Of a stretch of 23,643 nt of DNA, positions 2,799-6,794 are shown piece after piece; positions within the stretch are counted from its first letter, which is position 1; each line of letters begins with the position of its first letter. Source of the stretch: a virus; the UHGV virus genome UHGV-1377021; one strand, given 5' to 3'. Made by a program: the position numbers and the translations under genes. The notes below the pieces were generated by a model, which worked only from the letters and a program-made list of their open reading frames with translations, did no database searches and was not told the DNA's origin.

Positions 2799-3283
2799 GC
2801 ATAAGAGAACTAAACCTCACCAAAGAACAGCACGAGTGGCTGAATGGCTGGCTTGAACTGTGGGGCGCATGGGTTTATTCAGGTCGTCTGGAAAAGCGCA
2901 TGAGCAGCGTAATAGCGAAGTTCATGGAGAGCGTAGAGCCGGGAAGAATTATGACAAGGCCAATGTGTAATGATGATGATGGAATGTTGATTTCTCAGGT
3001 CGTCGATTCCGTCATGTACATTGACAAGAAAGCCTTTGGCATCCTCCTCAGCTACTACGCTCATGGATCTTCCAAGCACGCCATTGCATCTTACTATCAT
3101 CGTGTCGCAAGACCTCGCAAGATGTTATGCCGGGGCGGCGGGCGCATTCAAAAACCATCGCTCGCAACCTGTCGCCGGGAAGTTGACGAAATCCTCAATG
3201 CCTCGTTGTTTATGATTTATCCGGTTCTGGATAGTGCGTTTAAAAACCGGAAACGTGTAGAGAAAATTAAACATGTAGCATAG
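2795..3283 (+). CDS. Q: Late-gene antitermination protein Q (phage 82/21 QuuD type)
   Basis: 162 aa with the WLELWGAWVY...RPMCNDDDGMLISQVV pattern typical of the Q82-type family; last gene before the late promoter and lysis cassette. Confidence 0.75.
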   Translation: MSIRELNLTKEQHEWLNGWLELWGAWVYSGRLEKRMSSVIAKFMESVEPGRIMTRPMCNDDDGMLISQVVDSVMYIDKKAFGILLSYYAHGSSKHAIASYYHRVARPRKMLCRGGGRIQKPSLATCRREVDEILNASLFMIYPVLDSAFKNRKRVEKIKHVA

Positions 3284-3287
3284 AACG

Positions 3288-3325
3288 TGTTGACATCATT
3301 GAGCAAATGAGCAACACTATTCACA
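3288..3325 (+). promoter_or_regulatory. Candidate Q-dependent late promoter (PR'-like) with qut region
   Basis: Exact TTGACA -35 hexamer at 3290-3295 directly after the Q stop; the -10 element is not clean (CACTAT/TATTCA candidates at 19-22 nt spacing). Confidence 0.4.
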
Positions 3326-3331
3326 TAAGCT

Positions 3332-3370
3332 GCCGTTAGTGACTCTTAAGTTGCAACGGTGGCTTTTTTT
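3332..3370 (+). terminator. tR'-like intrinsic terminator just downstream of the late promoter
   Basis: CCGTT(3333-3337)/AACGG(3355-3359) stem with a long loop, followed by GGC and a T7 run (3364-3370). Confidence 0.45.
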
Positions 3371-3448
3371 GTTTGCACAACAGGTAAGAGCATTGAACCC
3401 GCAGACCTCGCGGAATTGGTGAAAGGTGCCGCGCAGTGCTCTTATCGT

Positions 3449-3576
3449 TGTGGTGAAGCTCAATGGCGAGCTAGCAGATAGGCGACAGTGAAAATACTAG
3501 TCATGTAGCTGACCGCCGCGCGTACTGCAATCGGCAGCGCACCGATGGAAGCCGGTTCGATTCCGGCCGCCACAAC
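3449..3576 (+). ncRNA. tRNA-like element (degenerate or interrupted; not a canonical tRNA)
   Basis: Near-consensus T-arm GCCGG-TTCGATT-CCGGC at 3551-3567; 7/7 acceptor pairing between 3449-3455 and 3568-3574; D-arm-like GCTC-AATGGC-GAGC at 3458-3471; anticodon-arm-like stem 3530-3534/3542-3546. But there is about 58 nt extra between D-arm and anticodon arm, no U33, and no CCA. Confidence 0.3.
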
Positions 3577-3585
3577 CCAAACTGA

Positions 3586-3635
3586 GCCGTAGCCACTGGC
3601 TATCCTGAATTCATCAGTGATAGTTACGCTGCGGC
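3586..3635. repeat. 50-nt imperfect palindrome/hairpin centred near a GAATTC site
   Basis: Outer 8-bp stem GCCGTAGC/GCTGCGGC (one G-U), inner 9-bp stem CTATCCTGA/TCAG(T)GATAG with a 1-nt bulge, 5-nt loop ATTCA; no U-tract follows. Confidence 0.5.
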
Positions 3636-3821
3636 CTTCTACACATGACCTTCGTGAAAGCGGTGGCAGGAGGTTGCGCTAACAACCTCATGCCGTTTTG
3701 CCCGTGCATATCGGTCACGAACAAATCTGATTACTAAACACAGTAGCCTGGATTTGTTCTATCAGTAATCGACCTTATTCCTAATTAAATAGAGCAAATC
3801 CCCTCAATGAAGGGGTAGAGC

Positions 3822-4025
3822 ATGTACCGTATGGACAAAATCAGAGAATGGTTCAGTTACAGCTTCGGAGGACTGACTGCGATGGGTGGCATTCTCTCCC
3901 TGAATGACTGGGCTGTCATCATTGGTATTCTTTGTACTGTCGGCACATTTGGCATCAACTGGTACTACAAGCGCAAAGAGCGCGAGGACAGATTGAATGG
4001 CAATGTCACCGGCACTACGAAATAG
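3822..4025 (+). CDS. Holin, small class II/pinholin-like, with a dual-start motif
   Basis: 67 aa beginning M-Y-R-M (two Met separated by a basic residue, as in the lambda S107/S105 dual-start arrangement); two hydrophobic segments, the first Gly-rich ([13 protein letters not shown]), and a charged C-terminus; directly upstream of and overlapping the endolysin. Confidence 0.7.
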
Positions 4026-4500
4026 CGTAATAGCGGCGATAAGTGGCGGGGCTATTGCTATAGCATCTGTGTTAATCACTGGACCAAGTGGTAACGATGG
4101 CCTGGAAGGTGTCAGCTACATACCATACAAAGATATTGTTGGTGTATGGACTGTATGCCACGGACACACCGGAAAAGACATCATGCTCGGTAAAACGTAT
4201 ACCGAAGCAGAATGCAAAGCCCTCCTGAATAAAGACCTTGCCACTGTCGCCAGACAAATTAACCCGTACATCAAAGTCGATATACCGGAAACAACGCGCG
4301 GCGCTCTTTATTCGTTCGTCTATAACGTGGGCGCAGGCAATTTCAGAACATCGACGCTTCTTCGCAAAATCAACCAGGGCGATATCAAGGGCGCATGTGA
4401 TCAGCTACGGCGCTGGACATACGCTGGCGGTAATCAATGGAAAGGACTGATGACTCGCCGTGAGATTGAGCGTGAAGTCTGTTTGTGGGGGAAGCAATGA
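3997..4500 (+). CDS. SAR endolysin (T4-lysozyme-like muramidase with N-terminal signal-anchor-release domain)
   Basis: 167 aa; N-terminal Gly/Ala-rich weakly hydrophobic stretch ([19 protein letters not shown]) followed by a GLEG...YKDIVG...WTVCHGHTG block carrying the E-D-T catalytic arrangement of phage-21-type lysozymes. Confidence 0.85.
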
Positions 4501-4934
4501 GCAGAGTAACCGCGATTATCTCCGCTCTGGTTATCTGCATCATCGTTTGCCTGTCATGGGCTGTTAATCACTACCGTGATAACGCCATCGCCTACAAAGA
4601 GCAGCGCGATAAGGCCGCATCCACAATCGCTGACATGCAGAAGCGTCAGCGTGATGTTGCAGAACTTGACGCCAGATACACAAAGGAGCTTGCTGATGCT
4701 AATGCGACTATCGAAAGTCTCCGTGCTGATGTTTCTGCTGGTCGTAAGCGCCTGCAAGTCTCCGCCACCTGTGCAAAGTCAACGACCGGAGCCAGCGGCA
4801 TGGGCGATGGAGAAAGCCCAAGACTTACAGCAGATGCTGAACTCAATTATTACCGTCTCCGAAGTGGAATCGACAAGATAACCGCGCAGGTTAACTACCT
4901 GCAGGAGTACATCAGGACGCAATGCCTTCGATGA
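4497..4934 (+). CDS. Rz: Rz i-spanin
   Basis: [31 protein letters not shown]... matches lambda Rz from memory: N-terminal TM anchor then coiled-coil-type periplasmic domain. The track ORF starts 4 codons upstream at 4485. Confidence 0.85.
4696..4881 (+). CDS. Rz1: Rz1 o-spanin (lipoprotein) embedded in the +1 frame of Rz
   Basis: [33 protein letters not shown]...: lipoprotein signal with a lipobox Cys and Pro-rich mature region, entirely inside Rz, as in lambda. Confidence 0.75.
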
Positions 4935-5300
4935 TAGCGATAATTTTACTCATCATCCTTCACATCTGGCTCTGTAGACAGGGTGGTGATCACTTCTGGA
5001 GTGAATCCAGATTAAACATCTCATTGCTGATGCTTGATATTGAGCATCTGGCGCGCGGTAAGGGGCTGCGTTGAGATAAGAGCCAGTTCATTACAAAGCC
5101 TATCTACGGGTGGGCTTGATAATGAAACCGGAATTTATTCTGGGCAACCAGTTACGGCAGTACAGCGAAACAACCCAAGCCAGTAAGTGGGGAAATAACA
5201 CTGGCAGCCACTGAAAGATGAACCTCCTGCCTTATGGCAAAAAAGATTCTTTGTGGTGGCGGACTGATGGAAAGACATTCGCTGAATCGATGATGAACAA

Positions 5301-5486
5301 GTGGAAGAGGTTGCTATGGTTTCCGTGAACAAAGATCCGAAGGAAGGCGTTGAATACATCACTGGTGCTGATGGTGTGAAAAGGCCAATGGCTTATTACA
5401 AAGCGGCCGAAGAGAGGGCAAGAATGGAAAATCCCCCTAAATGCGGATCATTTTTCGACATGCTGGACCTTCCATGGAAGTTGTGA
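5301..5486 (+). CDS. Hypothetical small protein
   Basis: 61-codon ORF ending 10 nt before a hairpin plus T-run terminator; no recognisable motif. Confidence 0.3.
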   Translation: MEEVAMVSVNKDPKEGVEYITGADGVKRPMAYYKAAEERARMENPPKCGSFFDMLDLPWKL

Positions 5487-5496
5487 ACAACTAACA

Positions 5497-5518
5497 GGTC
5501 GCTCAGGCGGCCTTTTTT
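5497..5518 (+). terminator. Intrinsic terminator
   Basis: GGTCGC/GCGGCC stem (one G-U) with 4-nt loop TCAG, followed by TTTTTT (5513-5518). Confidence 0.5.
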
Positions 5519-5625
5519 ATTGCCATTACAAAAGCCATTCCCTACAGAGTGGCTTTGATAATGGCTTATACCCTACACGGGATAACTTAACTGATATCCC
5601 TTTTAACGGATAAACGGAGCCAACA

Positions 5626-5868
5626 ATGGCAGAGATTATTCCCATGACTGAAGAACAGAAATTCCAGTTAGAGATTTACAAACTGGTCATGAACCAGAAC
5701 GCAGCCGCAGAAGAAGCATTTCAATTCATTGGCACTGACGAACTGAAGCTTGAGCTATTCAAAATTCACTTCCAGTCAGGTGGCGCTAATTCAGATATCA
5801 CGACCCGCACTATCGAAGCGGTGCGTAAATCGAAGGAAGCGTTAGACCTGTTCACTACCGGAGTGTAA
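5626..5868 (+). CDS. Hypothetical protein (80 aa)
   Basis: ORF with a GGAG-type RBS (ACGGAGCCAACAATG); acidic, predicted helical; no motif recognised. Confidence 0.5.
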   Translation: MAEIIPMTEEQKFQLEIYKLVMNQNAAAEEAFQFIGTDELKLELFKIHFQSGGANSDITTRTIEAVRKSKEALDLFTTGV

Positions 5869-5871
5869 GAG

Positions 5872-6159
5872 ATGACTGAACAAGAAATGCCGAGATACCA
5901 GTGCCACAAAAAAGTTCGCGCCCTGAAGATTGGCTCTATAGAACATAAGCCAAACCCAGATCAGCCTGGTAAGTCTGGCTCTTCTAGTTATGGGGCAATT
6001 ATTCATCCGGATGATAAGAAATACGCAGCATTTGATGTTAGCGCGGAATATATCTGTAAGCACCGACCAATGCCTGGAGGCTATTACGTTGTCTATGAGG
6101 ATGGATATGAATCATATTCTCCTGCTGAGGTATTTGAGTCTGGATATTCAAAATTATAG
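5872..6159 (+). CDS. Hypothetical protein (95 aa)
   Basis: ORF starting 4 nt after the previous stop (GTAAGAGATG); contains a GSSSYG low-complexity stretch and a Tyr-rich C-terminus; no motif recognised. Confidence 0.5.
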   Translation: MTEQEMPRYQCHKKVRALKIGSIEHKPNPDQPGKSGSSSYGAIIHPDDKKYAAFDVSAEYICKHRPMPGGYYVVYEDGYESYSPAEVFESGYSKL

Positions 6160-6168
6160 GAATCCTCT

Positions 6169-6348
6169 ATGACAATCGTCGTTGATCTTGGTAAGGAGAA
6201 GAAATTCCCAATTACTCAAGAGCTATACGAGCGACTTGAAAGCGTCATCCATGATTACGATGGTGAAATCAGTTTATGCGAGGCGATTGGCACACTCGAA
6301 TTGCTGAAGCAGTCACTGATTGAAGGCGCGAAAGAGTCCTCAGCCTGA
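6169..6348 (+). CDS. Hypothetical small protein (59 aa)
   Basis: ATG at 6169 with an AGG RBS, 60 codons to TGA at 6346-6348; below the ORF track's length cutoff. Confidence 0.4.
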   Translation: MTIVVDLGKEKKFPITQELYERLESVIHDYDGEISLCEAIGTLELLKQSLIEGAKESSA

Positions 6349-6365
6349 AATAACAACTAAGTGAG

Positions 6366-6794
6366 ATGAATATGGCGACTGAATCAAAAGCTGGTCGCCC
6401 CTCTGATTATATGCCGGAGGTGGCTGACGATATCTGCTCGTTGCTTTCTTCTGGCGAGAGTTTGCTGAAAGTATGTAAGCGTCCTGGTATGCCGGATAAG
6501 TCCACTGTTTTCCGCTGGTTGGCAAAGCATGAGGATTTTCGCGACAAGTACGCGAAGGCAACTGAGGCACGAGCTGATTCTATTTTCGAAGAGATATTCG
6601 AAATTGCTGACAATGCGATTCCAGATGCTGCTGAAGTGGCAAAGGCAAGACTTCGCGTTGATACACGCAAATGGGCGCTGGCCCGAATGAATCCCCGTAA
6701 GTATGGCGACAAGGTAACTAACGAGCTTGTCGGCAAAGACGGCGGCGCAATTCAGATTGAAACATCACCGATGAGCACTCTATTCGGAAAATGA
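6366..6794 (+). CDS. Terminase small subunit (P22 gp3 / Sf6 gp1 type)
   Basis: 140-142 aa, MATESKAGRPSDYMPEVADDICSLLSSGESLLKVCK...; I recognise this as essentially the Sf6 small terminase sequence. Start may be the ATG at 6366 or 6372. Confidence 0.85.
   Translation: MNMATESKAGRPSDYMPEVADDICSLLSSGESLLKVCKRPGMPDKSTVFRWLAKHEDFRDKYAKATEARADSIFEEIFEIADNAIPDAAEVAKARLRVDTRKWALARMNPRKYGDKVTNELVGKDGGAIQIETSPMSTLFGK

Follow-up and report, generated by a model that had tools for sequence, protein, structure and literature searches.

The virus genome UHGV-1377021, a stretch of 23,643 nucleotides that is called the window here, carries three small open reading frames (ORFs), ORF80, ORF95 and ORF59, between its lysis genes and the gene of the small terminase subunit (positions 5626–6348; Table 1). 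These three ORFs are, with high confidence, dispensable cargo of a recombination-prone accessory island within the late operon and not core packaging genes. Furthermore, we propose that this island serves anti-defence and that ORF95 belongs to a candidate anti-signalling family, a reading that comes close to an even call without quite reaching it. The original prediction, which was made from the sequence without database searches, had described three plus-strand ORFs with plausible ribosome-binding sites between terminator-like hairpins and the small terminase, and this description is correct. It recognised none of the three, although two of them have long been catalogued, as P22 orf80 (DUF2560) and P22 orf59c, corresponding to hkbM and hkbN of HK620 and to gp67 and gp68 of Sf6. 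Thus, two of the ORFs as genes of unassigned function, as well as the variability of the junction in principle, were already known. What is new is the gene-precise ORF95 cassette, the link of a very large unannotated family to the OB fold of the phage L protein Dec and the recurrent fusion of this family to four sponge families.

The presence and absence of the three genes was surveyed in 80 IMG/VR loci with a near-identical DUF2560 gene, the family of ORF80, and a small terminase gene was found downstream in 79 of them. The slot between both genes is empty in 41 of the 79 loci. It holds orf59c alone in 14 and ORF95 followed by orf59c in ten, eight of the latter with a P22-type and two with an Sf6-type small terminase. 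The remaining slots contain orf129 with or without Dec (five loci), Dec alone (two), orf59c followed by Dec (one), a 162-aa gene of the type found in phage Dewey (two) or other small ORFs (four). ORF59 is present in 28 of the surveyed loci. Both types of small terminase occur with ORF95 as well as with ORF59, and the content of the slot does not follow the terminase type. Neither universal presence nor co-variation with the terminase type, as would mark core packaging or head-assembly genes, was therefore found. On a larger scale, the complete trio is present in 49 of 5,426 complete Escherichia coli genomes, whereas pieces of the region occur in about 2,500.

Genetic data from P22 point in the same direction. 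Here, a deletion spanning orf25 to orf80 yields viable phage (PMC11016777), and orf80 deletions are viable, which makes the gene non-essential (PMC11016777; bioRxiv 10.1101/2023.08.15.553423). Since the slot is empty in more than half of the relatives, its content is independent of the terminase type and orf80 can be deleted in P22, the three ORFs do not belong to the core packaging genes. The original prediction had named the contrary outcome as its refutation, namely that all three are conserved core genes with packaging roles, while the variability it had ascribed to the lysis-terminase junction proved to be hypervariability in both surveys of relatives, the one described above and one of the region further upstream.

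The alignment with P22 displays how precisely the cassette is inserted. In P22, HK620 and Sf6, orf80 and orf59c stand in the same order and place as in the window, immediately 5′ of the small terminase, and the two genes abut, the stop of orf80 leading directly to the start of orf59c. In contrast, the window and phage Bas106 contain 300 bp more, which correspond exactly to ORF95. The junction is located inside orf59c, among its first few codons, and these codons differ in ORF59. Bas106 retains only the 3′ third of orf80 (residues 49–80), joined to the end of a Rha-like gene, with ORF95 and ORF59 intact (L001:3000-3100). The ORF95-ORF59 pair can therefore persist after the loss of DUF2560.

ORF80 matches the Pfam model PF10834 (DUF2560) over its whole length (E 1e-43, 147.7 bits at a cut-off of 25, profile positions 1–72 of 72) and belongs to phrog_571, with relatives in 178 phage records. 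DNA and protein comparison identified P22 orf80, HK620 hkbM, Sf6 gp67 and phage L orf118 as its counterparts, and the DUF2560 proteins of P22, HK620 and Sf6 are 97–100% identical to it. An AlphaFold2 (AF2) model with a predicted local distance difference test score (pLDDT) of 77 contains four helices, and the fold search against the PDB gave nothing below E = 3.8. The junction has its conserved, non-essential anchor gene in ORF80, which by its location would belong to the accessory class.

ORF59 matches phrog_3546 over positions 1–59 of 59 (E 2e-41) and, as in this family, lies 5′ of the small terminase. It is predicted to be a small, mostly helical protein. Its counterparts are P22 orf59c, HK620 hkbN and Sf6 gp68, relatives are present in 45 phage records, and ORF59 is about 88–96% identical to orf59c (96% to that of P22 over residues 4–59). 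A 47%-identical relative is encoded by an Erwinia phage. Both families are narrow, with 92 clusters for ORF80 and 70 for ORF59 at 90% identity, essentially all from Enterobacterales. The possibility that ORF59 is a divergent Sequestin was rejected (hhalign probability 0.2%). Judged by their sequence relatives, the three ORFs are genuine genes and not chance ORFs, because ORF80 matches DUF2560, ORF59 matches phrog_3546 and has the Erwinia relative, and ORF95 has hundreds of homologues at the protein level.

The homologues of ORF95 extend to 37–54% identity in phages of Ralstonia, Pseudomonas, Klebsiella and Burkholderia, and no Pfam, NCBIfam or PADLOC model matches the protein. When the representatives of 50%-identity clusters were searched with a profile built from 79 homologues, 4,985 of them matched at E<=1e-3 and, at the stricter E<=1e-10, 3,093. 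The number 4,985 has to be read as an upper bound, since the top match, P0283, a giant repeat adhesin of 4,188 aa, is a false positive in which 28 repeats (…DGSYSYTPAPNFNGTD…) mimic the DGYxSYSPA motif of the family. (Near-)invariant in ORF95 are P7, Y9, C11, H12, K13, V15, A17, L18, K19, I20, H64 and P66 and, in the C-terminal part, G69-G70-Y71-Y72-V73-V74-Y75, D77-G78-Y79, S81, S83-P84-A85, F88-E89 and G91-Y92. In the single polypeptides P0286 and P0419 the domain occurs twice in tandem, which would fit an oligomer as its normal working state. No published description of this domain was found in the literature by PHROG number, by peptide motif or by the fusion to Tad2/DUF2829. In Dolphis (Pseudomonas), LASTA (Klebsiella), PCSE1 (Salmonella) and BCSR129 (Burkholderia) the homologues are encoded among small early or accessory genes or beside genes of DNA metabolism. 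The Ralstonia phage GP4 carries its homologue between the portal and major head genes, next to a gene for a CsrA-like regulator (L004:4001-4500, gp05-gp04), an unusual apparent cargo pair inside a head gene cluster.

The proposed function of ORF95 derives from its fusion partners. Among 136 representatives with a full ORF95 domain, 55 stand alone, and extensions of 40 aa or more are present at the N-terminus in 25 and at the C-terminus in 57. In 144 representatives scanned with Pfam, the fusion partners were PF21825 (six), PF13876 (four), the Tad2-like PF11195 (three), the Acb2/Tad1 hairpin PF24729 (three) and DUF551 (three). Here, PF13876 is the family of the Acb4 anti-CBASS sponges (bioRxiv 10.1101/2024.12.30.630793) and PF21825 is Sequestin, an anti-Thoeris sponge that was itself discovered via its fusion to Tad2 and Acb4 (bioRxiv 10.1101/2025.07.12.664507). 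Thus, 16 of the 144 representatives are fused to four sponge families, a recurrent fusion of the kind that had led to Sequestin. When 100 extensions were clustered, the largest groups were Acb4-like and PF21825 (seven each), followed by ORF59c (five, close relatives only), self-duplication (four), Tad2 (three) and Acb2/Tad1 (three). ORF59c-like domains in distant ORF95 relatives were dropped as candidates; these were marginal matches of hidden Markov models, and the best of them (P0033) clusters with the Acb4-like tails. Fusions of the ORF95 domain to Sequestin are encoded by the cultured phages LASTA (gp52) and BCSR129 (QRE00484) and by another contig in ENA, and they are therefore not artefacts of assembly. 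Since there is no Pfam model for the ORF95 family, the Pfam-based fusion query of the Sequestin study could not detect it. In general, ORF95 resembles these sponges in being a short phage protein that occurs on its own or fused to them.

A further likeness is the genomic place, as Acb4, Tad2-fusion and Acb2/Tad1 genes of sister phages share the accessory hot spot of ORF95. The region from Rz to DUF2560 was surveyed in the 72 loci in which Rz was found. An Acb4 homologue similar to Sf6 gp66 (PF13876, E 4e-35) is present in 17 of them, including three of the ten loci that bear ORF95. In two P22-like prophages from IMG/VR (L044:2676-3197 and L048:2718-3197), the region encodes phrog_872 proteins with a Tad2-like C-terminal part (PF11195), whose 75 N-terminal residues carry the ORF95 motif (hhalign 93.5%); the whole of ORF95 matches phrog_872 with E 3e-9. 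This N-terminal domain contains the C-terminal motif of ORF95 (DGYxSxSPxxFExxY) and lies at the same lysis-terminase junction, but it is shorter, lacks the middle segment of ORF95 and is always fused to Tad2 there, whereas ORF95 of the window stands alone. An Acb2/Tad1 hairpin protein occupies the region in another locus (L033:2923-3207), and the remaining content consists of Rha, KilA-N, DUF551 and T5orf172 genes. The expectation that small proteins at this junction are frequently host-takeover, anti-defence or exclusion factors, which the original prediction had put forward, is thus strengthened in its anti-defence part, since known families of this kind are present in close relatives. None of the Tad2-fusion, Acb2/Tad1 and Acb4 genes of the related loci is labelled as anti-defence in the inspected records.

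Regarding structure, a PDB-wide hmmsearch with the ORF95 profile revealed phage L Dec (6E3C) as the only related solved structure (E 1.2). Profile-sequence comparison with hhalign aligned residues 6–95 of ORF95 to residues 10–91 of Dec, the whole OB-fold domain, with 85.6% probability. With a profile of 137 sequences, the probability increased to 93.7% (E 1.9e-7) and the score of 43.4 lies far above that of 100 shuffled Dec sequences (11.1 ± 2.1, maximum 19.6). Direct BLASTP of ORF95 against Dec gave E 0.002. As the original prediction had proposed, fold searches were performed, and Foldseek placed 6e3c first among the PDB matches of the ORF95 AF2 model (E 8.7e-3, probability 1.0, 75 columns). 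Common to both proteins, with residues 5–95 of ORF95 aligned to residues 9–91 of Dec, are the core positions P-x-Y, V-x-A-L-x-I, K-P-x-x-G-G-Y and A-F-E-x-x-Y-T. ORF95 is, by profile comparison and modelling, a remote homologue of the Dec OB-fold domain. The dec gene of phage L is found in the slot of ORF95 too, directly 5′ of the small terminase and after the DUF2560 gene (orf118) and orf129. Dec is an orphan restricted to P22-like phages of Salmonella, with 95% identity or more throughout its 65 phage records, whereas the ORF95 family comprises thousands of clusters; this narrowness would fit a derivation of Dec from the larger family. The product of phage L orf129 was considered as a further relative of ORF95 and rejected (hhalign 0.1%), and it doubles as a negative control.

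A link exists also between ORF95 and ORF59. Both share a reading frame and are separated by a TAG stop codon and three further codons (GAA TCC TCT; 6157–6168). Five database proteins of 158 aa (P0001-P0005) are ORF95-(Q/E)ESS-ORF59 fusions, in which TAG has become CAG or GAG. For two loci from independent assemblies, one from NCBI (L091) and one from Logan (L092), the junction differs only by the change of TAG to CAG, and both lie in the same slot between DUF2560 and the terminase. Separate ORFs are much more frequent, with 275 member sequences per cluster in comparison to one or two for the fusions. Moreover, ORF95 occurs without ORF59 in phage Dewey, and ORF59 is commonly present without ORF95. 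The fusion demonstrates that ORF95 and ORF59 can work, or be tolerated, in one polypeptide, and it suggests a joint action of both.

Taken together, a counter-defence role of ORF95 is proposed on account of the recurrent fusion of its relatives to Sequestin, Acb4, Tad2 and Acb2/Tad1, which have that role. Resting on these domain fusions and on the neighbourhood, this role is about as probable as its absence, while the narrower assignment of ORF95 as a sponge is tentative and rather unlikely. Mechanistically, ORF95 would fold as a small OB-type β-barrel with a conserved surface, formed by H12-K13, K19, H64 and GGYYVVYxDGYxSxSPxxFExGY, that differs from that of Dec. In the cytoplasm it would bind a nucleotide-derived immune signal or another conserved component of the host or its defence via its conserved His/Lys residues and tyrosines, probably in the form of a homo-oligomer. 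Since a single base change fuses both proteins into one, ORF59 would probably be a partner of ORF95 or a neighbouring, independent accessory unit.

Several observations weigh against this proposal. ORF95 falls into none of the described sponge families (Tad1, Tad2, Acb2, Acb4, Sequestin, Lockin, TadIV-1) and resembles none of them in sequence or fold, including the four to which its relatives are fused; Lockin and TadIV-1, like Acb5 and the RyR-like sponge, are set apart from the ORF95 family by their descriptions. The only structural relative that could be detected is a capsid decoration protein, and the AF2 model of ORF95 is poor, with a pLDDT of 60. Among the 100 extensions, 63 are singletons of no recognised nature, and the fusions may partly reflect that small accessory genes lie side by side in phage genomes. 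Expression from the late operon is not obviously ideal for an inhibitor that acts early, yet the Acb4 homologue gp66 of Sf6 is encoded in the same operon. The proposed assignment of ORF80 and ORF59 to an anti-defence island comes from their location.

Among the alternatives, the three ORFs could be near-neutral hitch-hikers or serve other accessory functions apart from immune signalling, such as superinfection exclusion, lysis timing or host physiology, which we consider unlikely. Patchy distribution and dispensability would fit, as would the narrow, Enterobacterales-only families of ORF80 and ORF59, and the same junction in P22 is the site of the ORFan pid, through which the dgo operon of the host is derepressed (PMC3573128). 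However, strong conservation of the whole family over thousands of clusters excludes neutrality for ORF95. The lack of evident membrane segments and signal peptides in all three sequences speaks against exclusion proteins of the typical kind, and no promoter-like site for expression from the prophage was found in positions 4800–6500.

Still less probable is that ORF95 acts as a nucleic-acid-binding OB-fold protein, for example in binding of single-stranded DNA or RNA or as a packaging accessory, with ORF80 and ORF59 as small proteins that regulate late functions. Oligonucleotides are common ligands of OB folds, the homologue of the Salmonella phage PCSE1 lies between helicase and MazG/ligase genes, the ORF95 motif is also present in a MazG-like PHROG, and the region adjoins the terminase. 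Nevertheless, half of the close relatives have an empty slot, and ORF95 occurs with both unrelated types of small terminase and is therefore neither needed for nor matched to packaging. The homologues inspected have no consistent neighbourhood of replication genes. Furthermore, the anti-signalling hot spots of N4-like phages are also interspersed with genes for single-stranded DNA-binding protein and RecA (bioRxiv 10.64898/2026.06.04.730250), and DNA-metabolism neighbours therefore do not discriminate between these readings.

The homology to Dec raises the question of a decoration or cement protein, which would be made late and bind the outside of the mature capsid via its OB domain, possibly oligomerised through ORF59. 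The common slot, the position in the late operon, the natural fusion to the helical ORF59 as a possible oligomerisation module and the annotation of the Dolphis homologue as 'capsid decoration protein' would agree with this. On the contrary, ORF95 ends with the OB domain, where the three-stranded β-helix of Dec starts that forms its C-terminal trimer spike (residues 78/92–134), and ORF59 is unrelated to this spike. In Dec, mutation of the site 1 capsid-contact residues K30 and Y49 reduces capsid binding (PMC6449081); these residues align to E24 and D55 of ORF95, in columns that are variable in its family, while the family signature (H12, K13, Y72, Y75, D77, Y79, S81, S83, P84) is absent from Dec. 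Given, in addition, that Bas106 has a 97%-identical ORF95 but a coat protein with only 29% identity to that of the window (over 147 aa), that the family retains its high conservation in phages whose capsids are unrelated and is usually encoded in non-structural gene arrays, that the 3.7 Å capsid structure of GP4 contains only gp2 and the immunoglobulin-like cement protein gp1 although GP4 encodes an ORF95 homologue (PMC9698820), and that the family is frequently fused to cytoplasmic sponge domains, a role in decoration is very improbable.

If ORF95 is indeed anti-signalling, the few known sponges and inhibitors of phages would be joined by a large and structurally distinct family, the 'novel OB-fold' of Dec would gain its first relatives as well as an evolutionary origin, and the lysis-terminase junction of P22-like phages would be an anti-defence island in well-developed genetic systems, namely P22, Sf6, HK620 and the BASEL phage Bas106. 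The widest form of this proposal is doubtful: here, the ORF95 family would be a new and very widespread OB-fold family of anti-signalling proteins (sponges or other inhibitors) with about 3,000–5,000 clusters at 50% identity, Dec would be an exapted offshoot, with a tail-fibre-like trimer spike acquired in the same slot, and ORF59c and possibly DUF2560 would be further anti-defence units. Even if the anti-signalling reading fails, the survey settles the three ORFs as dispensable cargo and not packaging genes.

Table 1. Features of the lysis-terminase junction in the window.
Feature	Position	Strand	Description
ORF80	5626-5868	+	80 aa, ATG start; Pfam DUF2560
ORF95	5872-6159	+	95 aa, ATG start; cassette between ORF80 and ORF59
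ORF59	6169-6348	+	59 aa, ATG start; corresponds to P22 orf59c
Intrinsic-terminator-like hairpin	5496-5513 (feature to 5521)	+	AGGTCGC-TCAG-GCGGCCT followed by T-run; terminator scan, RNA fold
Conserved non-coding boundary sequence	5514-5614	+	contains long hairpin (~5522-5565)
Small terminase subunit, Sf6-type	6366-6794	+	PF20901 (E 8e-45), phrog_1482; downstream boundary of the variable slot
Rz-to-terminator part	4922-5486	+	upstream half of the junction; two small ORFs
50-aa ORF	4922-5074	+	hydrophobic, Sf6-gp65-like; recurs in related loci
61-aa ORF	5301-5486	+	phrog_5425 (no assigned function); recurs in related loci

Within this layout, a Shine-Dalgarno-like purine-rich stretch lies 7–12 nt 5′ of each of the three ORFs, and 17 nt separate the end of ORF59 from the start of the small terminase gene. 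A scan for sigma-70-like promoters in positions 4800–6500 found none, and no terminators were found between the three ORFs. Because of this lack of a promoter-like site and since the annotation of Sf6 places a Q-dependent late promoter 5′ of the lysis genes, the three ORFs would be transcribed late, via Q-antiterminated read-through of the terminator at 5496–5513. The own promoter and terminator of a classical moron were thus not found, and the insertion is gene-precise inside the late operon. Scans of all ORFs with NCBIfam and PADLOC gave no significant match. The base composition displays a slight dip in GC over ORF95 only, which is not informative.

The terminator-like hairpin forms the upstream edge of a conserved boundary. 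The hairpin region, a stretch of 143 nt, has a strong RNA fold (z = -6.0), and positions 5514–5614 alone are 89–100% identical in many of the about 2,500 complete E. coli genomes with any query match. By its appearance, this stretch could be a cis element or the boundary sequence of a module. In Rfam, only sub-threshold chance matches were obtained for 4900–6500 and none for the hairpin within 5514–5614. The non-coding stretch of about 100 bp 5′ of ORF80, extending into 5626–5710, is often kept without the downstream genes, and in HK97-like phages orf80 is reduced to its first 27–28 codons (phrog_23132). Further upstream, the endolysin and Rz genes end at 4934, and the 61-aa ORF takes the place that is held in Sf6 by the Acb4 homologue gp66.

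Two other proteins of the slot were observed in relatives. The 162-aa protein of the Dewey type (L010:2800-3288, phage Dewey CDS0077; also in L033 and L081) is annotated as 'peptidase HslV family protein' and has no Pfam match. It follows DUF2560 in the slot and ORF95 in Dewey, and has no relation to the equally long small terminase. The phage L protein orf129 (L003:1989-2378), encoded between DUF2560 and dec, has no Pfam match either and contains an HExxH-like 'HECAH' motif, by which it may be a metallopeptidase-like small accessory protein.

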